Source of the DNA: Pelagibacteraceae bacterium
GTDB lineage: Bacteria; Pseudomonadota; Alphaproteobacteria; HIMB59; GCA-002718135
Assembly: GCA_002717485.1 (NCBI GenBank)
Contig: PBDW01000003.1
Coordinates: 5,315 to 69,314, forward strand
Length of the DNA stretch: 64,000 bases
Reading direction: 5' to 3'
Each line of letters opens with the position of its first letter. Position 1 is the stretch's first letter. The position numbers and the translations under genes were made by a program. This document shows positions 1-28,802 of this stretch, piece after piece. The notes below the pieces were generated by a model that saw only the letters and a program-made list of their open reading frames with translations, was not told where the DNA came from and did not search any database.

Positions 1-1311
1 TTTATAATCTAACAAAACGGAATCCTCTACACGTCCATTAGAGACATCTTCAATTGCTTTATCTAATATTTCTAAACCTTCTTTTGCTTGATTCTCTGTT
101 AAAATCAATGGTGGAGTAAGTTCTAAAACGTTAGATTTCATACCGACATAAAATATTATTAAACCTAATTGATAAGCTCTATAAGCAATTTTAGCAGTTT
201 CAATTTTCGCTTCCTTTTTTGTTTTAAACCTATCTGTTACTATTTCTACTCCCATAGCTAAACCTTTACCTCGTATATCACCAATTAAATTATGCTTATT
301 TGAAAGTTGTTGAAACCCTTCAGTTAGAACCTTGCCAACCTTCATAGAATTATAAATTAAATTATCATTATATATAGTTTTAAGAACAGCTCTGCCGGCA
401 GAAATAGATACTGGGTTTCCTGAAGCTGTCATTATTGAGAAGGCTGGTGCGAAATCCATAATTTCTGTAGGTCCTACAATTGCTGATAACGGCAAGCCTC
501 CCCCTAAAGCTTTTCCAAAACAAACAATATCTGGCTCAAGATTTTCATGTTCAAATGCATTCATTAAACCAGTCCTACCAAGACCAACTTTAACCTCATC
601 TACTACAACAAGTATTCCATATTTTTTACATCTCATTTCTATAGACTTTAAAAAACCCTCTGGTGGCACTATAACACCTCCATCAGATTGAATAGGTTCG
701 ATAAAAATAGCTGCGACTTCATTTGGTGGACAAGTTGTAGAAAAAATTTCGTCAAGCATTTTTAAAATATTTTCACTTAAGTTTTCTTCAAATTGAGGTC
801 TATAAGGATTAGGATAAGGTAGATACACAACTCCATCCCTTTTGGGATTGTGTTGTTGGGAGCTGTGGCCAGATACTGACATAGAACCACTTACACCACC
901 ATGATAAGCTCCGTGAAATGTTATGAATCTTTTTCTTCCAGTATATGCCTCAGCTAAACGAACTATTGTATCGTTGGCATCTGAACCGGAATGACCAAAC
1001 CAAACTTTTCTAGAGGTATTTCCTGGAACTATATTTAATAATTCCTCTGCAAATAATATTGCAGGTTCTGAGGCATAGGAAAGCAGACTTGATGAAGCCA
1101 TACTCTGAGAAGCGTTTGAAATAGATTCTTGTATTGCAGGATGACTATATCCCAAACCCGCTGCTCCCCAAGAACCAGCAAAATCTAATAGACGTCTTCT
1201 GTTTTCATCAATAATGTAGCAACCTTCTCCCCCGATTGGGGCTATTGGAAAAAATCTTATTTTTTCAATATCGGCTATGACTTTTTTGTCTCTTTCAATT
1301 AGATTTTTCAT
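1..1311 (-). CDS. Class-III PLP-dependent aminotransferase; C-terminal end runs off the window (437 codons, no stop seen)
   Basis: Not in the ORF track. Manual translation from ATG at 1311..1309 gives MKNLIERDKKVIADIEKIRFFPIAPIGGEGCYIIDENRRRLLDFAGSWGAAGLGYSHP..., open to base 1. Class-III motifs: GHSGSDAND, IEPIQSDGG, VVDEVKVGLGRTG, and CFGKALGGG (PLP-lysine context). Start lies 1 nt after the stop of the upstream dehydrogenase gene. Confidence 0.8.
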   Translation of the reverse strand, partial: MKNLIERDKKVIADIEKIRFFPIAPIGGEGCYIIDENRRRLLDFAGSWGAAGLGYSHPAIQESISNASQSMASSSLLSYASEPAILFAEELLNIVPGNTSRKVWFGHSGSDANDTIVRLAEAYTGRKRFITFHGAYHGGVSGSMSVSGHSSQQHNPKRDGVVYLPYPNPYRPQFEENLSENILKMLDEIFSTTCPPNEVAAIFIEPIQSDGGVIVPPEGFLKSIEMRCKKYGILVVVDEVKVGLGRTGLMNAFEHENLEPDIVCFGKALGGGLPLSAIVGPTEIMDFAPAFSIMTASGNPVSISAGRAVLKTIYNDNLIYNSMKVGKVLTEGFQQLSNKHNLIGDIRGKGLAMGVEIVTDRFKTKKEAKIETAKIAYRAYQLGLIIFYVGMKSNVLELTPPLILTENQAKEGLEILDKAIEDVSNGRVEDSVLLDYK

Positions 1312-15734: not shown

Positions 15735-17009
15735 TTATCCTAACTTTATATTATCTATTCCAACAATTTTGTTATACAGCCAATACAACACTAGCATTAC
15801 TGCCAGAAGAATACTTCCTAGCGCTGAGCACAAACCCCAATTTAAAGTTGTTTTTAAATGATAAGCAATCCAGTGACCAATTAACTGACCATCCTTACCT
15901 CCAACTAATTCGGGAGTAATAAAATACCCTATAGCCAGAACAAAAACTAAAAGTCCCCCTGCGCTCATTCCGGGAACAGTCTGTGGTAAATAGACTTTAA
16001 AAAAAGCTGTTGCTGGTTTTGCGCCCAAATTTTGCGCAGCTCTCATATGACTCTTGGGGATAACCTTCATAACACTATAAAGAGGTAAAATCATAAATGG
16101 CAGAAGTATTTGCGTCATTGCAATAATTGTTCCAGTCATATTATAAACCATTTGTATACGTTGATCGTCGCCAAGTATACCGAGCCAAACTAATACGCCA
16201 TTAATAACACCCTTTTGTTGAAGCATAACTATCCATGCTGTTGTTCGCACTAGCAAGGAAGTCCAAAAAGGCAGCAGAACAAAAATCATCAATAAATTAC
16301 TATATCTTAATGGCAAATTGGCTAATAAATGTGCAACCGGAAATCCTAGGACTAAGCAAAAAAATGTCACATAAATACTTACTTTGAAAGTTCTCCACCA
16401 CGTTTTAACATACATCCTTCTTTCTTCATTTTGCATTATAACTTTTTGATCTATGTCATAAGTTCTATCAATTGCATTCCAATAATAAATTAGCGTAGTT
16501 TCATTTAGCATTTGAGCCATCGCTATCCAAAAAGTAGGATCTGCCCAACCTTTATTAATTTCTATCATTGTTTGTTTGTAGGACGAAGGCTCTTCGCCAC
16601 TTTTGTATATTTTTTTAACCTGTCTTCTTGTTTTTTTAATAAGACTCTTCCAGCCAGATTTAGAATAATTCATTCTTGTTAGTGCTTTGCCTACTTGGAT
16701 CCCCTCTCCAGTTGCTAGCTCAAGAAAAAGAGATTTGTAAACTGCTTCAGGAGGTAAATCCTCCCTATCCCATTTGGCATATTCTTCAAAGGTATTAGGA
16801 AAAACAGTATTGATATGGCTATCATCAACACTTCTAAAAAGCATATCTGCTATAGGTACTACAAAGGTTACGACTATGAAAAGAAGTAAAGGGAAAACTA
16901 ACAAGAATGCCCTTATTTTATTTTTCCTTTCAGTCTTTCTTAGACTAACCTTTAAAGGAATACCGTCGGTGGTTAATATTTGTGTTCCGTTAGAAATTGT
17001 ACCCTCCAA
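15735..17009 (-). CDS. ABC transporter permease (PotB-like) with a large extra domain between TM1 and TM2
   Basis: 424 aa. EAA-type loop AAQNLGAKPATAFFKVYLP. About 150 hydrophilic residues (about 58-205) lie between the first two hydrophobic segments. The start codon read from the sequence is TTG (17009..17007). Confidence 0.85.
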   Translation of the reverse strand: MEGTISNGTQILTTDGIPLKVSLRKTERKNKIRAFLLVFPLLLFIVVTFVVPIADMLFRSVDDSHINTVFPNTFEEYAKWDREDLPPEAVYKSLFLELATGEGIQVGKALTRMNYSKSGWKSLIKKTRRQVKKIYKSGEEPSSYKQTMIEINKGWADPTFWIAMAQMLNETTLIYYWNAIDRTYDIDQKVIMQNEERRMYVKTWWRTFKVSIYVTFFCLVLGFPVAHLLANLPLRYSNLLMIFVLLPFWTSLLVRTTAWIVMLQQKGVINGVLVWLGILGDDQRIQMVYNMTGTIIAMTQILLPFMILPLYSVMKVIPKSHMRAAQNLGAKPATAFFKVYLPQTVPGMSAGGLLVFVLAIGYFITPELVGGKDGQLIGHWIAYHLKTTLNWGLCSALGSILLAVMLVLYWLYNKIVGIDNIKLG

Positions 17010-17071: not shown

Positions 17072-18178
17072 TTAGTTACCCATCCAAGCTGCATATCGCT
17101 CGTCAATTTCAGCTCCATTATCAGACCACCATTCCGGATCACCCATAACTGAAATTTTTAATCTTTCAGGAGTGTTCGGCATATGAGGCATAACATCAAT
17201 ACCTGTGTGGAACCATGGCTCACCAGCTTTAATTATGTCAATACCTGATGCTCTCATTGGACCATAAGTGATGTATTTTGCTTGTTCAGCTTGTGAAGCA
17301 GGAGAAGTAGCATGAATTAAGAAATCCATAGCTTGATCTCTATTTGGAGCACCTGTCATTAAACATAGATATTCTTGTTCAAGTAACTGTCCTTCCCAAA
17401 TATATTCAAAATTTTCACCTTCACTTAGTACTGCTGCGCCAACACGACCATTGTAAGCGATTGACATAGAAACCTCTCCACTTTTTACTAATTCTAGTGG
17501 TTTGGCTCCAGCAGACCAATGTACTATACTATCTTTGATTGTATCCATTTTAGCAAATGCTCTATCTACTGCACCTGATTGGTTCTTTAACACTGTATAA
17601 ACAGCGTCTGGAGCCACACCATCTGCAACCATTGCCATTTGGATAAATCCGTTTGCCCAAGTATGAACGCCTCTTTTACCAGGATAGTTTGCTACATCAA
17701 AAAAATCTGCAATTCTTGATGGCTGTGCATCTTCTGGAAATGCTGTCGGATCAAAAAATACTACGTAAGTCCAAAAAATCTGAGGACCACAACAGTCTGA
17801 AAGATTTGTAACTCCGTTAGCTTCCATATCTGCAATTAGTCCGTCACCGTTATCAGCAGCTATGAAGTTATCATATTCACCTGATATGTCTTCGAAAAGA
17901 CCTTCGTCACAGCCTGTGATAGCTTGATCAGGAAGAACGTCAACTAAATCCCAAGCAACGTTTCCACTTTCTACTTGTGTACGTACTTCACCAAGACCGC
18001 CATTATAATTTTCAAATTTAATTGCGCTTGGATCGCTATACGTATCTGCGTATGCCTTAATTTGACTTTCTGTGTAAGCTCCACCCCATGATGCTACTGT
18101 AACAGCATTCGATGAAAATGAAAAAATAACGCAGAAAGATGCAAATAAGAAGGCTTTAATGAATTTTAACATAATCAT
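17072..18178 (-). CDS. ABC transporter periplasmic substrate-binding protein (PotD/PotF-like, family 1)
   Basis: 368 aa. Sec signal peptide MIMLKFIKAFLFASFCVIFSFSSNA. SD AGGAGGA upstream. Located between the ATPase and permease genes. Confidence 0.85.
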   Translation of the reverse strand: MIMLKFIKAFLFASFCVIFSFSSNAVTVASWGGAYTESQIKAYADTYSDPSAIKFENYNGGLGEVRTQVESGNVAWDLVDVLPDQAITGCDEGLFEDISGEYDNFIAADNGDGLIADMEANGVTNLSDCCGPQIFWTYVVFFDPTAFPEDAQPSRIADFFDVANYPGKRGVHTWANGFIQMAMVADGVAPDAVYTVLKNQSGAVDRAFAKMDTIKDSIVHWSAGAKPLELVKSGEVSMSIAYNGRVGAAVLSEGENFEYIWEGQLLEQEYLCLMTGAPNRDQAMDFLIHATSPASQAEQAKYITYGPMRASGIDIIKAGEPWFHTGIDVMPHMPNTPERLKISVMGDPEWWSDNGAEIDERYAAWMGN

Positions 18179-18312: not shown

Positions 18313-19404
18313 TTATTTAGGAAAGTCTAAAGCCCTTATATCTTCAGCTAACCAGCTTACATTTATTGTATCGTTCTTGGAAAAGTTCACTGATCCTTCG
18401 TTGCTAACTTTAACAATAAATTCTTCGTTTCCACATACATTAAGTCTTACTCTTATATGATCTCCTAAATATATCAGTTCTCGAACCTGACCTTTAAAAT
18501 TATTTTGAAATGTTGAATCTTTGGCATTTATAACTACCCTTTCTGGTCTAACAGAAAGTTGTGTTTTTTGACCCTGGTTCTCAACATTAACCTTTAGAGC
18601 TTGCAGTTTTTCACCATTATCTAAATCTACATGACATATCGATCCTTCAATTTTATTTATAACACCATTAAATCTGTTATTTTCTCCTATAAATTGTGCA
18701 ACGAACGCATTCTCAGGTTTTTCGTATAAAATATCAGGAGTAGATAATTGTTGAACAACGCCATCATCAAAAACAGCTATTCGATTAGACATTGTTAATG
18801 CTTCACTTTGATCGTGGGTTACGTAGACAACTGTAATGTTAATACGTTCATGAATGTGCTTTATTTCGTATTGCATCTGCTCACGTAAATTTTTATCAAG
18901 AGCTCCAAGCGGTTCGTCCATTAAAACTAATCGTGGCTCAAAAACTAAAGCTCTTGCTAAAGCTACACGTTGTTGCTGACCTCCTGAAAGTTGCGCGGGG
19001 AATCTTGTTCCAAAATTTCCTAACTCAACCATATCCAGTGCTTTATTTACTTTGTCTTTAATTTCTGACTTTGGTATTTTTCTTACCTCTAAAGGAAAAG
19101 CTAAGTTTTCTTGAACTGTCATATGTGGAAATAATGCATAGTTTTGAAACACCATACCTATCTCTCTTTCATATGGAGGAATTTTACTGATTGGTTTTCC
19201 TTCTAGGAATATTTCTCCATTAGTAGGAGTTTCAAAACCTGCTAACATCATTAAAGTTGTTGTTTTACCAGACCCTGAAGGCCCAAGCATAGTAACAAAT
19301 TCCCCTTTTTGAATATTAAGATTTAGATTTTTTACAACTAATACTTCTCCATCATAGCTTTTGTCAATTTTATCAAACCTTACAAAACCATTTTCTAATT
19401 CCAA
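18313..19404 (-). CDS. ABC transporter ATP-binding protein (PotA-like)
   Basis: Walker A GPSGSGKTT, signature LSGGQQQRV, Walker B LVLMDEPLGALD. The ORF track extends to 19449, which is itself a TTG. I prefer the TTG at 19404..19402 because GGGAGG (19416..19411) lies 6 nt upstream, and the extra 15 residues (MKNKVKCLFFFGRIN) are not ABC-like. Confidence 0.85.
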   Translation of the reverse strand: MELENGFVRFDKIDKSYDGEVLVVKNLNLNIQKGEFVTMLGPSGSGKTTTLMMLAGFETPTNGEIFLEGKPISKIPPYEREIGMVFQNYALFPHMTVQENLAFPLEVRKIPKSEIKDKVNKALDMVELGNFGTRFPAQLSGGQQQRVALARALVFEPRLVLMDEPLGALDKNLREQMQYEIKHIHERINITVVYVTHDQSEALTMSNRIAVFDDGVVQQLSTPDILYEKPENAFVAQFIGENNRFNGVINKIEGSICHVDLDNGEKLQALKVNVENQGQKTQLSVRPERVVINAKDSTFQNNFKGQVRELIYLGDHIRVRLNVCGNEEFIVKVSNEGSVNFSKNDTINVSWLAEDIRALDFPK

Positions 19405-19497
19405 ATTAATCCTCCCAAAAAAAAATAGACATTTGACTTTATTTTTCAAAATGTCTAGTTGGTTATTGTTTTATATATCTATTGTTTTTGGTGATCA

Positions 19498-20355
19498 ATG
19501 AATTTTAATGGAATTATTTTTGCCTTAATAGCAGCCACTTTATTTGGATTGATCCCAAGTACTACAAAAATATCATACTTATTGGGGGCAAATCCACCTT
19601 TAGCCATTATTTTTCGATACCTCTTGGCCATATTAATCATTATACTTCCACTTATATCGATCAAAAATCAATTTAAACAAATTAGTGGGAATCTCAAAGG
19701 ATTGGTATCAATTTCAATAGGCTCGATCCTTCTGACTCTTGGCCTCTTGACCTCGGTTATATATATACCTGTTAGCTTAGTTGCACTAATATTTTATACC
19801 TATCCTTTAATAGTGTTGGTATGGTCTTTTATAAATGGATCCCAGTTAAGCAAGTTCCAATCAATAGGTTTTTTTAGTGCATTCATAGGCCTAGGAATCG
19901 CATTAGGTCCAAGTTTTAATAATTTAAATTTCATTGGAATTTCTTTAGCCTTTTTGGCAGCTATCGGAGCCTCAACAGTCTTAATAGTGAATGAAAAATT
20001 AGCACAATCTCTTCATCCAATAGTAATTAATGCTTTTGTAAATTTTTTCTGTTTATTTATTAGTAGCATATTAATTTTTATTTATTTTGATATTAATTTG
20101 CCTAAAGATTTTAACGGTTGGTATTATATTTTATTTGCTTCATTTTGTTACTGTGCAGCTTTTTATTCTCAATTACTAGCCGTAAAAAGCATAGGTTCAA
20201 CACGTACTTCGTTATTATTATATGGAGAGCCAATAATAGCAATAATTTCAGCAATAATATTATTAGACGAATCCTTGACTGGAGTTCAGTTGTTTGGAGC
20301 AGCTATTGTAATATTCTCATTAGTTATAACTTCAAGAAAATATAATTTAGTTTAA
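19498..20355 (+). CDS. DMT-superfamily (EamA-like) transporter
   Basis: 285 aa, about 10 TM segments in two EamA-like halves. Confidence 0.8.
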   Translation: MNFNGIIFALIAATLFGLIPSTTKISYLLGANPPLAIIFRYLLAILIIILPLISIKNQFKQISGNLKGLVSISIGSILLTLGLLTSVIYIPVSLVALIFYTYPLIVLVWSFINGSQLSKFQSIGFFSAFIGLGIALGPSFNNLNFIGISLAFLAAIGASTVLIVNEKLAQSLHPIVINAFVNFFCLFISSILIFIYFDINLPKDFNGWYYILFASFCYCAAFYSQLLAVKSIGSTRTSLLLYGEPIIAIISAIILLDESLTGVQLFGAAIVIFSLVITSRKYNLV

Positions 20356-21341
20356 CTAAAATTTTTTTGCATAAAATTAAACCAATTTAAACCTAAAATT
20401 TTAAATATGTCCTTTTCACTCAAACCAATCTTATCAAGACCATGATAAATATTAACAATATCGCTGCTTTTCTTAAACCAAGGAGGTTGTTTTGGCCAAC
20501 TTGAATTTTTATTGCTAGATTCTCCATAATTTATTTCTTTAGTCCACTTTCCATTCCGCATCCACATTACAACATCATCACTCCAATTCTTACAGAGATC
20601 ACTACCTATGCCAATATGATCAATGCCTATCAGATTTATTAAATCCTTTATCATTTCACAAAAATCTTCTAATTTACAATTACTGTGATCCTTTAAATGA
20701 TAAGGGTATAAGCTTAATCCTATAAATCCGTCTTTGCTTGCAAGTTCTTTGAGAATGACATCTTCGATATTTCTTTTTGATTTATGAAAAAAAGTTGGAT
20801 TGGCATGAGAAATTGCTACAGGCTTTGAAGACAATGCAATGGCATCTAAACATGTTTTTTTTCCAGCATGACTCAAATCAATTATCATTCCTAAACGATT
20901 CATTTCCTTAATAACTTCTTTACCAAATCTGCTAACACCAGAATCATTTTCTTCAAAACATCCTCCGCCTAAAGCAGTTTGATTATTATAAGTTAATTGC
21001 ATAAATCTTAATCCTTTTAAAAAGAAATCTTCAACTAAAAAAATATTATTAGCTATTGGTGCCGAATTCTGGAATCCAAATATTATTGCTAGTTTATTTT
21101 CTTTTTTTGCCTTTAAAATATCGCTAGTACAAGTTGCATGGCACAAAATATCATTATTATTATTAATTATTTTATGCCAATCTTGAATTTTTTGAAAAGA
21201 TTCTTCGGTATTTTCCCAATATACCAATGTAGCATGTATAGCAGTTAAGCCACCATTTAAAGCATCTTCGAATAAATCCCTGTTCCAATTGCAATATTGC
21301 AATCCATCAATAATTATTTGATTTTTAAAAGGATTATTCAT
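20352..21341 (-). CDS. M19 (renal/membrane dipeptidase) family homologue with substituted zinc ligands
   Basis: 329 aa. Collinear with recalled DPEP1 blocks: IIDGLQYCNW (vs IDGHNDLPW), IIFGFQNS (vs LIGVEGGH), FGKEVIKEMNRLGMIIDLSHAG, PVAISHANP, IGIGSDL. Confidence 0.8.
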   Translation of the reverse strand: MNNPFKNQIIIDGLQYCNWNRDLFEDALNGGLTAIHATLVYWENTEESFQKIQDWHKIINNNNDILCHATCTSDILKAKKENKLAIIFGFQNSAPIANNIFLVEDFFLKGLRFMQLTYNNQTALGGGCFEENDSGVSRFGKEVIKEMNRLGMIIDLSHAGKKTCLDAIALSSKPVAISHANPTFFHKSKRNIEDVILKELASKDGFIGLSLYPYHLKDHSNCKLEDFCEMIKDLINLIGIDHIGIGSDLCKNWSDDVVMWMRNGKWTKEINYGESSNKNSSWPKQPPWFKKSSDIVNIYHGLDKIGLSEKDIFKILGLNWFNFMQKNFS

Positions 21342-21376
21342 TTTTTTTTTTTGAAATAATATTATTACATATATAT

Positions 21377-23095
21377 ATGTTTTATAATACTATGATGAAA
21401 AAAACATCTCATATTAATAAAAAAACAACATTAAAGGATATAATGACCTTGGAGAGAATGGGGGCAAGATATCCATCTCGCTTAAGTTTTTCAAGAAGTA
21501 TGTTAAGGGCTATGGTAAGGGAAAAATGGCGTATCAAAACAGTTATATTTGATTTAGACAAAGAGGGTTATGGTAGTGTCGTATATGAGGTAACAACACC
21601 AAAGCAAATCTATTCCTTATTATGTTTTTCACAATATCTTGATGATAAAGAAAGAAGTGATAGAGTTATTGCTGATAAATGGGATACAGCTTATACCTTA
21701 CACATTGGAAAGATATCTAAGTTAGAATTTAAAAGACTTAAGAAAAACATACCTCTCCAAGAAGCAGGAAGAAATTCGCCCAAAGAACTAATATTAAGCA
21801 GAGCAAATAAAAGTGTTAGACTTTTTGAAAAAGTAGTTGATTGCTTATCAAAAGGTAATCAGCCAGATATCAATGATTTCAATAAAGTTGGATACCTATT
21901 GAGAACAACGGCAGTTTACGGTAGTGGAAAATTTGGACTTTCTGACTTTTCAAGAACTAAAGTTGTAACTAATTTTAATCAGCCCTTTAGGGCTGAAATG
22001 CTAGCTGTATATATAATTCGTGAATTTAGCATACATCTTGTTGAACACATAGCTTACAACAGAAACCCAAAGAAGGCTGTAAAAATTAAAAACAAGATAA
22101 AGCAACACCTTGGTATAGGGAACTCTACGGGATTAGGTATGGCTCCCTTTATAATTAAGCATCCAAAACTTATCCATAAATGGATTAGACAATTTGAAAA
22201 AACATTAATGAAAATTAAAATTATTAAATCAATTAAAAATTCTTCATTTAATAAATTTATTATATTGCTAGAAAAATCTAAAACCTATTTAAGCGAAGTA
22301 GATACAAATGATAAAATTCAAAAAATTAAAAATAAGAAAACATTAGAAGATTTAATATTGATAATTAAACACTGTAAAAAAATTAGAAAAAATTCTTTAA
22401 ATAATTTTAATTGGGCAAAATTAATCAAATATGCTGAAAAAAATTATTGCTACGATCTTCAAGAAATAGTAAAAGTTCAAATAATTGAATTATATCCTAA
22501 TATTGCTGACAAACTTGCGGAGGATATGTCAATGGGCGATGATCAATATATCAAGCATAATATGCTGGTATCTGATTTATTGAATATAATTAGAAAAAAT
22601 TATGATTGGGCCTTAAAAACAAATTTTAAAACCAAAATAAACACTTACTTATTTTGGTATGTGTCTAAGGAAAAATTGGAACCCAGACTGGGCGAAAGAT
22701 ATAATGAAAAAGGCTCCGAATTAGAGCAGCCACTTGGGATTGGTAGGATGGTTAATGAATTATATGAATTTATTAATAAGAAAAATAAAAAAATACTCAA
22801 ATTAAATATTATTAAATTTCTAATTTTATATCCCCAATTTAGAGGAATTATTAGACGTATTCAAACCCTAAGTGATTATAAATATGGAGAAGTAAAAGAC
22901 AATATCCTCCACAAAAATGTTCTCCCAATTGATATGTTAAGATTTAAATTATCATTTTTTGGCGCATCGCGCTATGACCCCAAATCAGATAGGTGGCTAA
23001 GAGTCAGTTTTTTTGCAGGCGCGCCTTATTATCAAAACCTTAACAAAAAAAATGTTGAACAATGGGGTTTTTCAACAATGAATTCTTATAAATAA
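21377..23095 (+). CDS. Hypothetical protein, 572 aa, no family recognised
   Basis: Long uninterrupted ORF in a gene-dense region. No TM segment, signal peptide or cofactor motif found. Alternative starts at 21392 and 21395. 35 nt divergent from the M19 gene. Confidence 0.6.
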   Translation: MFYNTMMKKTSHINKKTTLKDIMTLERMGARYPSRLSFSRSMLRAMVREKWRIKTVIFDLDKEGYGSVVYEVTTPKQIYSLLCFSQYLDDKERSDRVIADKWDTAYTLHIGKISKLEFKRLKKNIPLQEAGRNSPKELILSRANKSVRLFEKVVDCLSKGNQPDINDFNKVGYLLRTTAVYGSGKFGLSDFSRTKVVTNFNQPFRAEMLAVYIIREFSIHLVEHIAYNRNPKKAVKIKNKIKQHLGIGNSTGLGMAPFIIKHPKLIHKWIRQFEKTLMKIKIIKSIKNSSFNKFIILLEKSKTYLSEVDTNDKIQKIKNKKTLEDLILIIKHCKKIRKNSLNNFNWAKLIKYAEKNYCYDLQEIVKVQIIELYPNIADKLAEDMSMGDDQYIKHNMLVSDLLNIIRKNYDWALKTNFKTKINTYLFWYVSKEKLEPRLGERYNEKGSELEQPLGIGRMVNELYEFINKKNKKILKLNIIKFLILYPQFRGIIRRIQTLSDYKYGEVKDNILHKNVLPIDMLRFKLSFFGASRYDPKSDRWLRVSFFAGAPYYQNLNKKNVEQWGFSTMNSYK

Positions 23096-23102
23096 AATTA
23101 AA

Positions 23103-23810
23103 GTGTCATTTTCTTATTACGAAATTTATACAACATGTTTAAGAGCGTTATCAGCAATTGGGTTTCCTTATGGAGCTGATGAGGACGCTGCTTTTATAGT
23201 TTCGTGGCTAGAGCTTAATAGATTGAATGGTTTAAAAAATTTAGTTAGCTTATTAAGAAAAAAAAATAGAAAATATAATGGAACGCTTAATACGAAAAAT
23301 CTTTTTATTAAAAATAAGATTAATATTAAAAAATCATCATTATTAATGAAGGGACCAGGTCTTTTTGACTTATTAGGTCAAAGATTTATAAAAAAAAATA
23401 ATGATCAATATATAATTGAGAATTGCATAGATCCAATATTTGTAATCCCATTAGCAGAAAGACTTTGTAAAAATAATATATATCTTAATTCATATTGGTT
23501 AGAACAAAATTTTTTAATTGAAGCAAGAAGTAGCGTAGATAATACTATTATAAAAAGAAGCAAAAGAATTTCTGGTATAAAGAAAAATCAAATAATATTG
23601 GAATTATCAAAAAAAAGATTGCTCTCTAAACTAAATACAAAAATATATTCAATGATTAATAAAAGAAGTACTCAAAAAAGACTTGGTGAGGCAATAAGCC
23701 CAAACATCAAAAATTGGAAGATTGTATCATCTTTTGCAGATAAAAGCTTTGTTCCAGAATCAAAAGAATCTAGGAAAAAAGGTGCAGGAGGTGGTGATGA
23801 TAATGATTAA
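23103..23810 (+). CDS. Hypothetical protein, 235 aa (possibly DUF3726-like; memory only)
   Basis: GTG start 7 nt after the previous stop, with no in-frame ATG nearby. N-terminus SFSYYEIYTTCLRALSAIGFPYGADEDAAFIVSWLELNRLNGL. Basic K/N-rich remainder and an acidic tail GAGGGDDND. Confidence 0.5.
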   Translation: MSFSYYEIYTTCLRALSAIGFPYGADEDAAFIVSWLELNRLNGLKNLVSLLRKKNRKYNGTLNTKNLFIKNKINIKKSSLLMKGPGLFDLLGQRFIKKNNDQYIIENCIDPIFVIPLAERLCKNNIYLNSYWLEQNFLIEARSSVDNTIIKRSKRISGIKKNQIILELSKKRLLSKLNTKIYSMINKRSTQKRLGEAISPNIKNWKIVSSFADKSFVPESKESRKKGAGGGDDND

Positions 23811-23815
23811 ATTTA

Positions 23816-24940
23816 TTATTTATTCCTTAAAAAAGGCAACTTACAAATCCTAACTTCAAGAGATTGATTATTGATTTTTAAATTATAACCTTTAACAATA
23901 TCTTGTTTTCTTCGTTCTATTAAAGCAAGGCCGATATTTTTCTTTAACCTAGGAGAATAAACACTTGAGGTTATTTTTCCAATAGACTTTTGATCAAAAT
24001 ACATTGGAAGGTGATCTCCTACATAATCTAAGAATGGATCTCCGAGTATTTCTATACCTACCAGTTCTTTTTTTGCACCATTTTTATTTATTTTAATTAA
24101 AGCATTTTTTGCTAAAAATTCATGTTTTTTTTCTAAATTAACAAATTTATCAAAATTTAAATCATATGGATTTTCTTCTAAAGTCATATCACTGCCATAA
24201 GACAACATACCGCATTCAATTCTACAAATTTGGTTAGGTGCAGCTGGGGCTATTTTAAATTCCTTACCGGCATCCATAAAAATTTCCCATAATTTATTTC
24301 CCAATTTTCCATCTCTTAAATAAACTTCATACCCCGCTTCTCCACTCCAACCACTTCTTGCAAGAACTACAGGAATTTTATTAATTTCTATCTCCTTAAA
24401 ATAAAAGAACTTTAAATCTTTAGCCCAGCTTCCAACTATTTTCTCCATTACTTGGGGCGCTTTTGGACCTTGAAGTGCCAAAGGAGAAACATCCGGCTCT
24501 ATAATTTTAACATCAAAGTCTTTTGAAGATGCTATGCCCTTACACCAAAGTAAAACATCGCTATCAGCTATTGATAACCAATAATGATTATTTGCTAACT
24601 TTAAGAGTACTGGATCATTTACCACACCGCCATTTTTTTCTGTAAGCAAAATATACATACACTGTCCTACTTTGCATTGTGAAATATCTCTTGGTGTAAT
24701 GTATTCAATGAATATTTCGGCATCCTTACCAGTAATTTCAACTTGACGCTCTCCCCCAACATCCCAGATTGTAACATCATTTGCAAGTGATAAATAATCA
24801 TCCAAATATGATTTATAATATGTCGGCATAAACATTTTATTGTAAACGGTAAATCCTTTAACGCCCCACTTCATTGTTGATTCAAAAAAAGGCGACTTTC
24901 TTATTCTTGTTCCAAAAGTGATTTCAGGATTTGTATTCAT
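23816..24940 (-). CDS. GcvT-family aminomethyltransferase (tetrahydrofolate-dependent demethylase), DmdA-like
   Basis: 374 aa. Blocks: RIRKSPFFE, FTVYNKMFMPTYY, IWDVGGERQVEITGKDA, NDPVLLKL..HYWLSIADSDVLLW, EPDVSPLALQGPKA, ARSGWSGEAGYEVY, IECGMLSYGSDM. The family call is firm. DMSP specificity is inference. Confidence 0.8.
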   Translation of the reverse strand: MNTNPEITFGTRIRKSPFFESTMKWGVKGFTVYNKMFMPTYYKSYLDDYLSLANDVTIWDVGGERQVEITGKDAEIFIEYITPRDISQCKVGQCMYILLTEKNGGVVNDPVLLKLANNHYWLSIADSDVLLWCKGIASSKDFDVKIIEPDVSPLALQGPKAPQVMEKIVGSWAKDLKFFYFKEIEINKIPVVLARSGWSGEAGYEVYLRDGKLGNKLWEIFMDAGKEFKIAPAAPNQICRIECGMLSYGSDMTLEENPYDLNFDKFVNLEKKHEFLAKNALIKINKNGAKKELVGIEILGDPFLDYVGDHLPMYFDQKSIGKITSSVYSPRLKKNIGLALIERRKQDIVKGYNLKINNQSLEVRICKLPFLRNK

Positions 24941-24954
24941 AATTTATATTATAT

Positions 24955-26127
24955 TTAAACTATATAGAGTCCGCGAGAAAAATTACAAAAAAGTTCGCAT
25001 CCCTTTTCAGTTACACGAATTGATTCGCTTATTTCAATACCCCACTTGTCCATCCACATACCGGCCATAAGATGAAATGTCACATTGGGTTTTAATTCTG
25101 TCATATCATTTTTTCTTATACTTAGAGTATGCTCTCCCCAATCAGGGGGATATCCAACACCAATTGAATATCCCGCTCTAGATTCTTTTTCTAATCCATA
25201 TTTACTTAACACATCCCAAAATGCCACTGCGACGTCATGTGCTGTATTCCCTGGTTTTGTATTTTTAATTGCATTTTCAATACTTTCATTAGTAATTTTC
25301 ATTGTATCCTGAATCTTTTCATCTGGCTTTCCAATAAATACCGTCCGAGCCATTGGACAATGATAACGATTTTTAACCCCACCTAATTCAATAATCGTAC
25401 CTTCATTGTTGGAAAATTTCTTATCTGATGGTGTTAAGTGAGCCGCAGATGCCGCGCTACCACTAGCTAGAATTATTGTTAATCCAGAATACTCACCGCC
25501 CATATTTTTATCACCAGAAATTAAAGTTTGGTGTATATTTCCAGATACTTCGCTCTGCCTAATCCCTGGTTTTATGGAATCATACGCCCTTTGCATACCA
25601 AGTTCGACCAATTTTCCTGCTTGTTTCATATATAGAATTTCTTTTTCAGATTTTACTAGGCGTATCCAATTTACTAATAGATAAGCATTGTGAAAATTTG
25701 CATTAGGGCACTGACTGACTAATCTATTATGTGATTCGGCTGTATAATAATAACTATCCATTTCTACACCAATGTTTTTATTATCTAAATTTTTTTTCTG
25801 CAAAAAACTTGTTAAATCGTCAAACGGATGACTTGGTGGGGACTGAATTAACTTTTCAGCATAACCTATAATGTTATTATTTTCTAAATAAGTAGTAATT
25901 CTAGCTCCATTAGCGTCTTGTTTTCTACCAAACCAAATAGGACTATCATCACTAAGACTTACAATTAGGGCTTGCGGTACATAAAAGGACCAAGCATCAT
26001 AACCTGTTAGATAATACATATTTGATGGATCACATAAAATAAGAACATCTAGGCCCCTATTTGACATTTCTAATTTTGTTTTATTAACTCTTTCTTTGAA
26101 TTCTTCTTGGCTAAAATTCATAATCAT
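24955..26127 (-). CDS. M24-fold hydrolase of the creatinase / ectoine-hydrolase (DoeA)-like subgroup (canonical di-metal ligands mostly substituted)
   Basis: 390 aa. Creatinase/prolidase N-domain plus pita-bread C-domain. IIELGGVKNRYHCPMARTVF aligns to FDTDMVGPYGYCADISRTF of the other M24 paralogue, but without the Asp ligands. Contains GYSIGVGYPPDWGEH. Confidence 0.75.
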   Translation of the reverse strand: MIMNFSQEEFKERVNKTKLEMSNRGLDVLILCDPSNMYYLTGYDAWSFYVPQALIVSLSDDSPIWFGRKQDANGARITTYLENNNIIGYAEKLIQSPPSHPFDDLTSFLQKKNLDNKNIGVEMDSYYYTAESHNRLVSQCPNANFHNAYLLVNWIRLVKSEKEILYMKQAGKLVELGMQRAYDSIKPGIRQSEVSGNIHQTLISGDKNMGGEYSGLTIILASGSAASAAHLTPSDKKFSNNEGTIIELGGVKNRYHCPMARTVFIGKPDEKIQDTMKITNESIENAIKNTKPGNTAHDVAVAFWDVLSKYGLEKESRAGYSIGVGYPPDWGEHTLSIRKNDMTELKPNVTFHLMAGMWMDKWGIEISESIRVTEKGCELFCNFSRGLYIV

Positions 26128-26146
26128 ACTTGCTAGTGATCAGTTG

Positions 26147-27262
26147 TTAAAGCTGTTTAGAAAAATAATCTTCACAGTTTCCTTCTCTGTATACATCTGC
26201 AGTTGCGCAATGAAGTGCTCCGCCAAAAGGATAAGCATCTCTAAAGGGAACAGGAATAACCTCCATACCAAATTTATCAATCTGTTCTGCCTGATAAACT
26301 TCGCTTTCTTCAACGCAAACAGTTTTGGGATCCAATACCAATACGTTCATACTCAACCATACACTTGAGTAACATAAAGGTGGCGATTCATTATGGGCTG
26401 GCGGTGCAGCATCAACAATTTGCCAATCATTTTTATAAAATATCTTTTTTTGCTCTTCTGGTAATTTTCTGCTTGCATTATTTAGTACTAACCCAGGTTT
26501 TAGAGGTGTAAAAGTAGCATCTATGTGAATTGGATATGGATCACCAGGAAAGTTAAGAATGTGAATTCGGTGTTCTGGAAAATGTCTCTGAATCCAATTT
26601 GCTCCCTTTAAATTAGTAGTAAATCCGTTTTGAATAAAAAGATCCTTACCCATTCTAAGTACATCCGCTGCATCAAATAATGGTTCCTCCTCGGTTGTAA
26701 CAAACTTTCTATTCCTAACCATTTCCAATCTCTGTTCAATTGTAATGCCTTCACTTAAATAATTTTCTCTATATGATCTATGAGTTAAACGAGGTTTTGG
26801 AGCAGATTCCCATTTCATATTTCTATCCTCATTAAAATACTTTTGCAAAAGGGGCCTATAACATAAATATTCAAACCATCGAGATCTATAAGACATTGTT
26901 GCTTCAAGCATTTCATTTCCAAGAGTAAAGATCACATCCCTTGGAGGCATACATCCAAACATTGATTCTATTTCCCAATCCGGAGTGGCAGCTTTTTGAT
27001 TAAAGTTAATGGCTGTTGGCCTATCAACTTTAATGCCTCTTTTTTCTAATATGGATGCTAATCCGTCAAGTTGTAAATTTCCCTTGTCTATTGATTCTTG
27101 AGATCTTGGACCATGCATTCCTTTCATATCACTATCTTCTGGTATTTTTGGATCAGTGGCAGGTTCGGCAGGGGGTATACAACATCCGTCAGCTCTGCCT
27201 ACAATTACATGCTTTAAAGGGTCCCATTCATTCCAAGAATTTACAACTGTATTATTTGTCAT
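26147..27262 (-). CDS. Amidinotransferase of the L-arginine:glycine amidinotransferase (AGAT/StrB) family
   Basis: 371 aa. Collinear with recalled human GATM: SWNEWDPLKHVIVGR, MPPRDV, SYRSRWFEY, KFVTTEEEPLFDAADV (Asp), PIHIDATF (His), WLSMNVLVLD, GGALHCATADV (catalytic Cys). Confidence 0.85.
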   Translation of the reverse strand: MTNNTVVNSWNEWDPLKHVIVGRADGCCIPPAEPATDPKIPEDSDMKGMHGPRSQESIDKGNLQLDGLASILEKRGIKVDRPTAINFNQKAATPDWEIESMFGCMPPRDVIFTLGNEMLEATMSYRSRWFEYLCYRPLLQKYFNEDRNMKWESAPKPRLTHRSYRENYLSEGITIEQRLEMVRNRKFVTTEEEPLFDAADVLRMGKDLFIQNGFTTNLKGANWIQRHFPEHRIHILNFPGDPYPIHIDATFTPLKPGLVLNNASRKLPEEQKKIFYKNDWQIVDAAPPAHNESPPLCYSSVWLSMNVLVLDPKTVCVEESEVYQAEQIDKFGMEVIPVPFRDAYPFGGALHCATADVYREGNCEDYFSKQL

Positions 27263-27314
27263 TATTTTATTTATGGATTTTTAAGCTGTATTCATTATCA
27301 ATACAAGTAGCCAA

Positions 27315-27342
27315 TTGCAATTTCAAAATACAATGATAATAT
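27315..27342 (+). promoter_or_regulatory. Candidate sigma70-type promoter for gabD
   Basis: TTGCAA (27315-27320), 16-nt spacer, TAATAT (27337-27342) with an upstream TG (extended -10). The -10 ends 8 nt before the gabD ATG and there is no SD. Confidence 0.3.
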
Positions 27343-27350
27343 AGAAATTA

Positions 27351-28802
27351 ATGGATATTAAGAATAAAGATCTTTTTAGGCAACAATCCTTTATCAATGG
27401 TGAATGGGTGGATGCTATAAATAGTAAGACTATTAATGTGAATAATCCTGCAACTCAGGAAATTATTGGAAATGTACCAAATTGTGGAAAAGATGAAACT
27501 ATAAGTGCTATTAGATCTGCTAAAAATTCCTGGAAGGACTGGAGTTCAAAAACCTCAAAGGAAAGATCAAATATTCTAAAAAAGTGGTTTAATTTGATTG
27601 AAGAAAATCAAGAAGATCTTGCTAGAATCATGACTATTGAACAAGGCAAACCGATAACAGAGTCAAGAGGAGAAATCACATATGGCGCTTCTTTTGTTGA
27701 ATGGTTCGCAGAAGAGGGAAAAAGAGTTTATGGTGATACTATCCCTGATGTTTTTCAAGATAGAAGAATATTAGTTATAAAGCAGCCAGTAGGTGTGGTA
27801 GCGGCTATTACTCCATGGAATTTTCCAAGTTCGATGATTACTAGAAAATGCGCTCCCGCATTAGCTGTTGGCTGTCCAGTAGTAATTAAACCCGCTAGTC
27901 AAACTCCCTTCTCTGCTTTGGCGCTTGGAGTACTCGCAGAAAAAGCAGGTTTTCCAAAGGGGACCATAAACATTATAACAGGGTCAGCAAAAGAAATAGG
28001 TGAGGAGCTTTCAACAAACCCAATTGTTAGAAAATTATCATTTACTGGATCGACAGAAGTTGGAAAAATACTTTTAAGACAATGCTCATCAACAGTTAAA
28101 AAAGTTTCTATGGAATTAGGAGGCCATGCTCCATTTATAGCGTTTGAAGATGCTGATATAGATGAAGCTGTTGAAGGAGCTTTTTTAAGTAAGTTTAGAA
28201 ATACTGGACAAACCTGCGTATGTTCTAACAGGTTATTTATTCATGAAAAAATCCACGATGAATTTGTAGAAAAATTTACAATAAAAGTCAGAAATATGAA
28301 AGTAGGCAATGGATTAGAAGAAGGTGTTATATCGGGACCTTTAATTGATCAATTTTCTTTTAGAAAAGTTGAAGAGCATGTTCATGATGCTGTTAACGTT
28401 GGTGCAAAAATAGCAATAGGTGGAAAGAAGCATAAGTTAGGAGGCACCTTCTATGAACCAACAGTACTTTTTAATGTTACAAATAAAGCAAGAATTACTT
28501 ATGAAGAAACATTTGGACCAGTGGCGCCAATTTATAAGTTCAATAATGAGGATGAAGTTATAAATATGGCAAACGATAGTCCTTATGGTCTTGCTTCATA
28601 CTTTTATTCTAGAGATATTGGAAAGATATGGAGAGTAGCTGAAGCACTTGAATATGGTATGGTTGGAGTTAACACAGGTATAATGTCAAAAGCAGAAGCT
28701 CCATTCGGCGGAATAAAAGAATCTGGTCTCGGGAGAGAAGGATCAAAATATGGCTTAGATGACTTTTTAGAGGTAAAGTATATAAATATTGCAGGAATAT
28801 AG
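27351..28802 (+). CDS. gabD: Succinate-semialdehyde dehydrogenase [NAD(P)+]
   Basis: 483 aa. Near-continuous similarity to recalled E. coli GabD: LFRQQSFINGEW, ARIMTIEQGKP, ASFVEWFAEEGKRVYGDTIP, ITPWNFP, KPASQTPFSALAL, MELGGHAP, FRNTGQTCVCSNR, EETFGP, GGIKESGLGREGSKYG. Confidence 0.9.
   Translation: MDIKNKDLFRQQSFINGEWVDAINSKTINVNNPATQEIIGNVPNCGKDETISAIRSAKNSWKDWSSKTSKERSNILKKWFNLIEENQEDLARIMTIEQGKPITESRGEITYGASFVEWFAEEGKRVYGDTIPDVFQDRRILVIKQPVGVVAAITPWNFPSSMITRKCAPALAVGCPVVIKPASQTPFSALALGVLAEKAGFPKGTINIITGSAKEIGEELSTNPIVRKLSFTGSTEVGKILLRQCSSTVKKVSMELGGHAPFIAFEDADIDEAVEGAFLSKFRNTGQTCVCSNRLFIHEKIHDEFVEKFTIKVRNMKVGNGLEEGVISGPLIDQFSFRKVEEHVHDAVNVGAKIAIGGKKHKLGGTFYEPTVLFNVTNKARITYEETFGPVAPIYKFNNEDEVINMANDSPYGLASYFYSRDIGKIWRVAEALEYGMVGVNTGIMSKAEAPFGGIKESGLGREGSKYGLDDFLEVKYINIAGI

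Follow-up and report, generated by a model that had tools for sequence, protein, structure and literature searches.

What do two adjacent genes encode when they lie among genes for the turnover of osmolytes and methylated amines and neither product has a described function? The question is raised by a 64,000-nucleotide stretch of Pelagibacteraceae DNA (contig PBDW01000003.1 of assembly GCA_002717485.1, positions 5,315 to 69,314), here called the window. The first gene encodes a protein of 572 aa as an open reading frame (ORF), which we call protein X, and the second a DUF3726 protein of 235 aa. The initial annotation proposed that the pair is a conserved, biochemically undescribed unit, possibly working with a degenerate homologue of M19 dipeptidases encoded next to it. 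This proposal was borne out by synteny, by fusions of X with DUF3726, by start/stop overlaps, and by purifying selection. X, the DUF3726 protein, and the M19-like protein form one conserved three-gene module, found from SAR11 to Halomonas and the rhizobia. Literature searches for DUF3726, for the structure 2I5G, for the Phaeobacter and Sinorhizobium meliloti loci, and for the operon found no description of the module; the X family and the module are undescribed in the literature searched.

The evidence for a module comes from 86 related loci that were gathered and in which ORFs were called. A DUF3726-like gene lay directly 3' of the X gene, or was fused to it, in 79 of the 82 evaluable loci, and the three others are ORF-calling or frameshift artefacts. 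In 67 of 75 loci, the 3.5 kb upstream of X contained an M19-like gene, and two more such genes were masked by over-extended ORFs. This upstream gene was on the same strand in 52 loci and divergent in 15, the divergent loci being those of the SAR11-related group, the window among them. Represented in the set were Alpha-, Beta-, and Gammaproteobacteria, Chloroflexota, and Actinomycetota, and the neighbourhood conservation that the initial annotation had suggested checking, with M19 and both ORFs linked across phyla, was confirmed. Among the best 149 representatives of X at 50% identity, 44 (about 30%) were 690–943 aa long, and all but two of these carried a DUF3726-like domain fused at the C-terminus of X; the two exceptions (P0272 and P0331) are probably frameshifted. 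In annotated genomes, overlaps of 1–4 nt were observed between the aldehyde dehydrogenase (Aldedh) and M19 genes and between the X and DUF3726 genes of Phaeobacter, as well as between the X and DUF3726 genes of S. meliloti. Because the gene order is X-DUF3726-M19 in S. meliloti and M19-X-DUF3726 elsewhere, X-DUF3726 is the invariant core, with M19 as its constant third partner.

To judge from homologues and substitution ratios, both ORFs are real, strongly conserved genes under purifying selection. X had at least 8000 homologous clusters at 90% identity. A profile search gave 1479 clusters at the 50% level, of which 439 reached E <= 1e-30, and X loci numbered at least 599 when each species was represented by a single genome. 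The 235-aa protein had 954 homologous clusters. The ratio of nonsynonymous to synonymous substitution (dN/dS; Nei-Gojobori, against three orthologous loci) was 0.10–0.16 for X, 0.13–0.17 for M19, and about 0.4 for DUF3726; the ratios are rough, since dS was saturated, and X was the most conserved of the three proteins. Orthologues are therefore plentiful and evolution is far from neutral, the reverse of two outcomes that the initial annotation had named as fatal to its idea. Its coordinates, strands, and spacings agreed with the ORF list (7 nt from the X ORF to the DUF3726 ORF, 35 nt from the X ORF to the divergent M19 gene, and 5 nt from the end of the DUF3726 ORF to a convergent GcvT/DmdA-like gene), and the peptide motifs that it quoted were all found in the translations. 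Its statement that the 235-aa ORF has no in-frame ATG was correct for the start region only: internal Met codons are present (e.g., in LLMKG and YSMINK), but they come after the conserved N-terminal domain. In support of the GTG start, the homologues begin at the same residue (MSFSYYE). The X gene likely starts at 21392 rather than 21377, as it is with the second Met cluster that both the homologues and the gene model of NCBI (567 aa, P0001) open.

X is a member of no described family, and no structural relative of it was detected. Against Pfam, X matched DUF835 alone and below threshold (17 bits; cut-off 33.1), and a Pfam scan of 67 diverse members of the family gave no recurrent match. NCBIfam and PADLOC gave no match to X, PDB sequences gave none or noise (phmmer, and hmmsearch with a 67-sequence profile), and hhalign detected no relation of X to Ldh_2, DUF3726, or M19 alignments. 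The database names of eight clusters and 240 homologues were all “hypothetical” or “uncharacterized”, including those of S. meliloti 1021, Phaeobacter inhibens, and many roseobacters. A first AlphaFold2 (AF2) model from a shallow alignment was poor, with a predicted local distance difference test score (pLDDT) of 66.5, while a diverse alignment of 67 sequences (down to 26% identity) gave a pLDDT of 93.8 and a predicted TM-score of 0.92. When this model was compared with the PDB by Foldseek, the best match had E 0.32 and TM < 0.13. The initial annotation had allowed that a characterized family might explain both proteins; this was not the case for X, and was the case only in part for the 235-aa protein, as described below.

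The sequence of X is nevertheless highly constrained. The motifs RTTAVYG(N/S)GKFG, G(I/V)GN(S/A)TGLGMAPF..HP, FWYxSxEKxEPRLG, LRxKLxFFGA, DPKSDxWxR, and QGAP are conserved in the family, and the X motifs are invariant across phyla in the alignment. Many Arg, Trp, and Tyr residues, one His (H262), and several acidic residues are near-invariant, and no Cys is among them. The conserved motifs RTTAVYGNGKFG and GIGNSTGLGMAPF were modelled as strand/Gly-rich-loop/helix elements, which, in the model, appear to be of a type that often binds anions. The K/N/I-rich middle noted in the initial annotation (residues 270–345, approximately) is indeed present; it is the poorly conserved part of the X family and was modelled as confident helices. 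A defence-system reading was tried and rejected, as PADLOC gave no matches.

The DUF3726 identity of the 235-aa protein, suggested in the initial annotation, proved correct. Residues 3–55 matched PF12525, a 73-position N-terminal model, at 40.6 bits (cut-off 22.1; E 2.3e-10), and the Phaeobacter, Pelagibacter, and Halomonas orthologues also matched it; the S. meliloti copy is too divergent for Pfam, yet it aligns in the cross-phylum alignment. Since three independent tests agree, we place DUF3726 in the Ldh_2 superfamily. First, when 72 DUF3726 proteins linked to the module were compared by hhalign with the genuine Ldh_2 proteins of those loci, 124 columns aligned at E 4e-5 and the N-termini were in register. 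Second, the best PDB match of a 31-sequence cross-phylum profile was Escherichia coli YiaK (1NXU/1S20; E 0.0024), in two collinear segments (1–111 to 1–116 and 186–222 to 297–333). Third, the Halomonas orthologue passed the Pfam Ldh_2 (PF02615) gathering score (45.4 versus 38.8 bits; profile positions 1–134 of 333). The window protein itself did not match PF02615, and it lacks a full-length Ldh_2 domain of approximately 333 positions. By these alignments, the DUF3726 protein is a truncated Ldh_2-superfamily protein without the middle of the fold, a relative within the superfamily rather than a member of the family.

Compared with Ldh_2 proteins such as YiaK, AllD, ComC, and DpkA, which are NAD(P)H-dependent reductases of 2-oxoacids or cyclic imines, the N-terminal 115–130 residues (approximately) of DUF3726 and a C-proximal segment of about 40 residues align collinearly, whereas the protein is about 100 residues shorter. 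What is known from these alignments is kinship, not nucleotide binding or redox activity. The N-terminal helical domain (GFPYGADEDAA..WLE) is kept. The His of the (S)HG motif in Ldh_2 proteins has a role in catalysis; the window protein has Asn (WLELNRLNGL) where the HGL motif noted by Pfam has His, and many orthologues keep HGL or HGF. DUF3726 also adds a C-terminal tail absent from Ldh_2 proteins, W..L...A...LVPxSExSRxxGAGxGxxDND-COOH, which is conserved from SAR11 relatives to Halomonas, Chloroflexota, and rhizobia in proteins that otherwise share only about 20% identity. In the window it reads FVPESxESRxKGAGGGDDND (23748–23807, the C-terminal 20 codons), and it also terminates many X-DUF3726 fusions. 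From its sequence, it looks like a docking tail or one that inserts into an active site.

The third protein is altered as well. The M19-like protein matched PF01244 at 248.4 bits (E 1.3e-73), over profile positions 39–318 only, and thus shares the TIM-barrel family of the canonical M19 dipeptidases (human DPEP1, Sco3058, and GliJ). In all 24 aligned module-linked copies, from several phyla, IDGLQYxNW stands at the N-terminus in place of the dipeptidase DGHxD, so that HxD is replaced by LQY. In a partial alignment with Streptomyces Sco3058 (3ID7; E 9e-23), the bridging Glu is replaced by Gln (GFQN versus GAEG) and the equivalent of His152 by Tyr (LTYNNQ; LTYNN versus LTHND); both replacements also occur in every module-linked copy. 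Still present are the two later His motifs, which provide the second metal site with its ligands, and the Asp motif further downstream (D(L/M)SH, SHANP, and GSD). The roles of ligands and residues are those that we assume from the published DPEP1 and Sco3058 structures; on this assignment, four of the seven catalytic residues of true dipeptidases are lost, and the protein lacks an intact binuclear zinc site and the full set of catalytic residues of the M19 dipeptidases. With these replacements, and with only partial, weak matches to dipeptidases of known structure (E 1e-19 to 1e-23), the protein is unlikely to work as a binuclear zinc dipeptidase.

The degenerate motifs of the M19-like protein (LQY, GFQN, LTYNNQ, and GC[YF]E) are themselves invariant across phyla. 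By far its closest solved relative is PDB 2I5G, an “amidohydrolase” of 325 aa (E 2.5e-62, full length). An invariant Cys in GC(Y/F)E occurs in the module-linked proteins and in 2I5G and not in canonical M19 dipeptidases, and a WMRNG(K/R)W motif occurs in the module-linked copies and not in 2I5G. Judging from this pattern of conservation, the Cys and the WMRNG(K/R)W motif could be new catalytic or ligand-binding residues.

The genes around the module in other genomes point to its possible role. Halomonas, Marinobacter, and a Pseudomonas sp. share an operon, Aldedh-M19-BCCT-X-DUF3726-RidA, with a divergent LysR gene; the alphaproteobacterium Kiloniella has the same operon with Ldh_2 replacing RidA, and Phaeobacter has LysR-Aldedh-M19-X-DUF3726. 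The Aldedh directly upstream of M19 belongs to one orthologous group (56–75% identical), which includes that of Phaeobacter. On pSymB of S. meliloti, the order is IclR-X-DUF3726-M19-Pot-like ATP-binding cassette (ABC) transporter-class III aminotransferase-succinate-semialdehyde dehydrogenase (SSADH)-RidA, and the fused X forms sit with M19, Aldedh, Pot-like ABC, LacI or LysR regulators, M24, and EamA. In three loci, a full-length genuine Ldh_2 gene (320 bits to PF02615) lies directly 3' of the DUF3726 gene (L037, 12375–13391; L054, 12394–13416; L086, 12360–13382), in the slot that RidA occupies in other operons. The genes soxBDAG adjoin the module in 21 loci. Other recurring neighbours are D-amino-acid-dehydrogenase-like DAO, GcvT/DmdA-like (GcvT-like genes in 15 loci), ProWX, BHMT, DMGDH, BCCT, Rieske GbcA-like, proline-racemase-family, and genuine Ldh_2 genes. 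The osmolyte/methylated-amine island in which the initial annotation had placed the pair is therefore a recurrent setting, with soxBDAG, BHMT, DMGDH, ProWX, BCCT, dmdA, and M24 genes as neighbours.

Osmolyte catabolic operons such as betIBA/betT, dddR-dddC-dddB-dddT-dddD, and doeABXCD combine a regulator, a transporter, a first-step enzyme, and an aldehyde dehydrogenase. The LysR + Aldedh-M19-BCCT-X-DUF3726-RidA operon has the same logic, and the placement of the module among sox, BHMT, DMGDH, ProWX, and dmd genes matches theirs. In contrast, X is unrelated to any of their first-step enzymes, and the closest equivalog of the module Aldedh, alpha-ketoglutarate-semialdehyde dehydrogenase (GucD), scored 486 bits, far under its cut-off of 770. 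None of the Aldedh, binding proteins, or BCCT reached an equivalog cut-off, so the substrate is not named by them. Because the module travels with its own aldehyde dehydrogenase, transporter, and regulator, it may itself be a catalytic core, and the word “accessory”, used of it in the initial annotation, is an assumption.

We consider the chances about even that X, the DUF3726 protein, and the M19-like protein together constitute a single soluble enzyme of catabolism, most likely as a complex, which converts a nitrogenous solute taken up by the cell to an aldehyde. In this proposal, X would be the specificity-determining and probably catalytic component. The DUF3726 protein would be a truncated, probably non-catalytic Ldh_2-like subunit whose acidic C-terminal tail may dock into a partner subunit, and the M19-like barrel would carry out a different, single-site (non-dipeptidase) chemistry or serve as a scaffold. 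The substrate would be a small nitrogenous solute (amine-, betaine-, or amidine-type) that enters the cell through the adjacent Pot-like ABC transporter or BCCT; cleavage or rearrangement of a C-N bond would give an aldehyde, possibly an imine, and the co-operonic aldehyde dehydrogenase and RidA would process these products. We infer the formation of a complex with the M19-like protein, the class of substrate, the aldehyde product, and the identity of the catalytic subunit from the resemblances and neighbours described above. A bolder form of the proposal, which we advance tentatively, is that X is the catalytic subunit of a new enzyme class with a fold outside the solved structures; together with a pseudo-dipeptidase and a truncated Ldh_2-like subunit, it might cleave the C-N bond of an abundant nitrogenous osmolyte of sea and soil, a step missing from models of SAR11, roseobacter, Halomonas, and rhizobial metabolism.

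Several observations weigh against this proposal. No cofactor or catalytic motif was identifiable in X. It is synteny that suggests membership of a complex for the M19-like protein, and no M19 fusion was found among the 149 X representatives. The DUF3726 protein evolves faster than its partners, as a non-essential accessory might. The substrate class is suggested by neighbours that differ between lineages, and the aldehyde dehydrogenase among them is alpha-ketoglutarate-semialdehyde-dehydrogenase-like, SSADH-like, or betaine-aldehyde-dehydrogenase-like. The window has no orthologue of the operon-type aldehyde dehydrogenase, and its likeness to the distant neighbourhoods of the fused forms is at family level only, the M24 proteins being just 21% identical. 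This limited likeness suggests that the module comprises subfamilies whose substrates differ yet are chemically related. Since the distant gene sets are not orthologous, a single multi-gene pathway conserved throughout was dropped as an explanation.

Some of the ocean's most abundant bacteria (Pelagibacter and its relatives, and the roseobacters) carry the module, as do the model organisms S. meliloti and P. inhibens, and homologues are present in genetically tractable strains. It sits in islands that turn over glycine betaine, dimethylsulfoniopropionate (DMSP), sarcosine, ectoine-like, and related compounds, which account for much of the dissolved organic nitrogen and of the methyl groups in the sea. 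Identification of the substrate would add a pathway step and possibly a new enzyme fold and mechanism, and could illuminate the long-unexplained M19-like genes of dimethylglycine operons.

Those operons contain the nearest analogue of the module, the “pepD_hp” pair, which is itself uncharacterized and shares the M19-like member alone. In Pseudomonas aeruginosa, the dgc operon consists of PA5396 (a putative dipeptidase)-PA5397-dgcA-dgcB, the PA5396 gene is 978 nt long (325 aa), and a transposon insertion in PA5396 behaves like one in dgcB (PMC13492115). The same uncharacterized pair is found in Vibrio natriegens (PMC12093977). A search of plasmids and chromids with 2I5G yielded Ralstonia and Sphaerotilus operons of the order glyA-M19-like-small protein-dgcA-dgcB-etfAB, in which the M19-like genes are 70% identical to 2I5G. 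The structure 2I5G is probably that of P. aeruginosa PA5396, to judge from their identical length of 325 residues and from the source organism of the PDB entry. The small “hypothetical” gene of the two operons (L092, 10093–10626; L093, 9981–10520) encodes DUF5943+V4R and is sometimes annotated as “4-vinyl reductase”.

In Pseudomonas and Vibrio (pepD_hp_dgcAB_fixAB), as in the module, an M19-like gene is followed by a gene for a small protein within a methylated-amine catabolic island, and the window M19-like protein and 2I5G have degenerate motifs in common (IDGL.., GFQN, CYNTQ/TYNNQ, and GCYE). However, the small partner in the Ralstonia and Sphaerotilus operons is DUF5943+V4R rather than DUF3726, X is absent from both, and the catalytic proteins there are DgcA and DgcB with EtfAB. 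The M19 proteins of the module also form a separate, tighter subgroup (288–396 bits to the window protein across other phyla, versus 214 for 2I5G). The initial annotation had tentatively placed DUF3726 proteins next to an M19 gene beside dgcAB; the M19-like gene of that picture stood, and DUF3726 did not, at least in the Ralstonia and Sphaerotilus operons. Neither dgcA nor dgcB (Oxidored_FMN DgcA-type and DgcB-type) was found within 10 kb of the window module, and the arrangement of the dgc accessory pair, an M19-like gene and then DUF5943+V4R with dgcA/dgcB/etfAB, does not occur there.

The kinship with dgc operons raises the alternative that the M19-like protein and its partners handle one-carbon (C1) units or iminium species, processing an N-demethylation intermediate (an iminium or carbinolamine) or formaldehyde for tetrahydrofolate instead of a primary substrate. 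This would parallel the uncharacterized PA5396-type gene that precedes dgcAB, a relative of which is the closest structure to the window protein, and the dgcB-like phenotype of the PA5396 insertion is in line with it. The module also adjoins tetrahydrofolate-dependent GcvT/DmdA-like genes in the window, Pelagibacter, and Phaeobacter, the frequent soxBDAG neighbours fit such a role, and formate-dehydrogenase-like molybdoenzymes are encoded near it in L005 and L048. Even so, we think this alternative improbable: in many genomes the operon of the module includes a transporter, a regulator, and an aldehyde dehydrogenase of its own but no demethylase, the PA5396 phenotype may be polar on dgcAB, and of the module only the M19-like gene is shared with the dgc operons examined.

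In an ectoine-type role, the module would carry out hydrolytic steps in the breakdown of an osmolyte that is a cyclic amidine or an N-acyl-diamino acid (ectoine, hydroxyectoine, an N-acetyl-diaminobutyrate (ADABA)-like compound, or a relative). The module would replace or complement the deacylation of DoeB/EutE type, with an aminotransferase and a semialdehyde dehydrogenase finishing the pathway like DoeD and DoeC; this layout of the doe/eut pathway is reportedly that of Halomonas elongata and Ruegeria pomeroyi. DoeA/EutD-like M24 genes indeed recur, in 20 of 82 loci, and in L025, L054, and L096 they share the strand of the module and lie immediately upstream of it. EutA-like Amdase genes, TRAP transporters, and a PALP gene occur near the module in L001, L005, and L096, genes for a class-III aminotransferase, SSADH, and RidA close the S. 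meliloti operon, and both the window and Halomonas have an SSADH gene beside the module. On the other hand, the window M24 protein scored 479.3 bits against the DoeA/EutD equivalog (TIGR02993), below the cut-off of 613, and from this score it is best regarded as a creatinase/ectoine-hydrolase-type paralogue; the distant M24 proteins are not its orthologues. The gammaproteobacterial operon has neither M24 nor aminotransferase, and its Aldedh is closest to alpha-ketoglutarate-semialdehyde dehydrogenase. The M19-like protein also lacks the metal site expected of a deacylase, and we judge the ectoine reading as a whole unlikely.

It is also conceivable that X is the sole enzyme, or a ligand-binding or regulatory protein, and that the DUF3726 and M19-like proteins are pseudo-enzymes acting as its chaperone, sensor, or allosteric partners. 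Both partners have degenerate enzyme folds, M19 with its lost catalytic residues and DUF3726 with its missing middle and, in the window, its Asn, and X is the best conserved of the three. We nevertheless find this doubtful, since the degenerate M19 motifs and the DUF3726 tail are invariant across phyla, which implies that a specific function is retained, and since the X-DUF3726 fusions imply a 1:1 stoichiometry. Finally, spurious or decaying ORFs, a reading that could appeal to the lowest G+C content of the window (0.264) and the low-complexity K/N/I-rich stretch, are refuted by thousands of homologues conserved across phyla, dN/dS far under 1, and the confident structure model of X.

The features of the window that bear on the module are as follows.

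Features of the module and its neighbours in the window, with the predicted domains of protein X (coordinates in nucleotides of the window unless given as residues)
Feature	Position	Strand	Remarks
Protein X (572 aa as ORF)	21377..23095	+	ATG; mechanical ORF list
X, N-terminal alpha/beta domain	residues ~24-230		AF2 model
X, helical middle region with variable K/N/I-rich insert	residues ~253-410		AF2 model
X, C-terminal alpha/beta region	residues ~425-550		AF2 model
DUF3726 protein (235 aa)	23103..23810	+	GTG start; mechanical ORF list
M19-like TIM-barrel protein (329 aa), third module member	20352..21341	-	PF01244
Pot-like ABC permease	15735-17009	-	ORF list; membership probable
SBP_bac_8-type binding protein	17072-18178	-	ORF list; membership probable
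ABC ATPase with TOBE_2	18313-19449	-	ORF list; membership probable
EamA-family membrane transporter (285 aa), between ABC genes and M19	19498..20355	+	
GcvT-fold DmdA-like aminomethyltransferase, convergent with module	23816..24940	-	
M24 hydrolase, creatinase/ectoine-hydrolase type	24955..26127	-	membership possible
Succinate-semialdehyde dehydrogenase	27351..28802	+	TIGR01780, 715 bits (cut-off 646); membership possible

The Pot-like ABC genes of the window, which have a second permease gene further upstream, occur in the same order beside the module in L001–L004, and Pot-like ABC genes also adjoin the module in S. meliloti and in fused forms. In L096, an EamA gene lies directly 3' of the fused X gene. 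The GcvT/DmdA-like protein of the window scored 399.1 bits against the DmdA equivalog NF009133, just under the cut-off of 410. In P. inhibens (L090, 11831–17271), the module is followed by a convergent annotated dmdA and by dmdB-, dmdD-, and dmdC-like genes. Because dmdA-type genes adjoin the module in both the window and Phaeobacter, the module abuts DMSP-demethylation genes in unrelated lineages. The SSADH of the window is 56% identical to that beside the Halomonas operon.

Promoter and terminator scans of the intergenic regions stayed at chance level. The 35-nt divergent region between M19 and X (21342–21376) contains a run of 12 T followed by alternating AT, and promoter-like sites in this AT-rich stretch did not exceed chance. 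An RNA element in the intergenic regions was rejected, as an Rfam search gave no match. Two ORFs of the mechanical list (26096–26368 and 27055–27336, both on the + strand; 90 and 93 aa) overlap, in antisense, longer genes that are supported by homology and, from their position, are probably not genes themselves. A 371-aa protein (26147–27262, - strand) matched the Pfam ADI/amidinotransferase family at a sub-threshold 17 bits and had no NCBIfam match; its N-terminus (NSWNEWDPLKHVIVGRADG) recalls, in our estimation, glycine amidinotransferase or StrB1-type enzymes. In L001–L003, an Amdase/EutA-like gene that is missing from the window lies between the orthologues of this gene and of the M24 gene. 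The interval of lowest G+C content in the window, 22001–24000, overlaps the variable helical insert of X and the fast-evolving DUF3726 gene.

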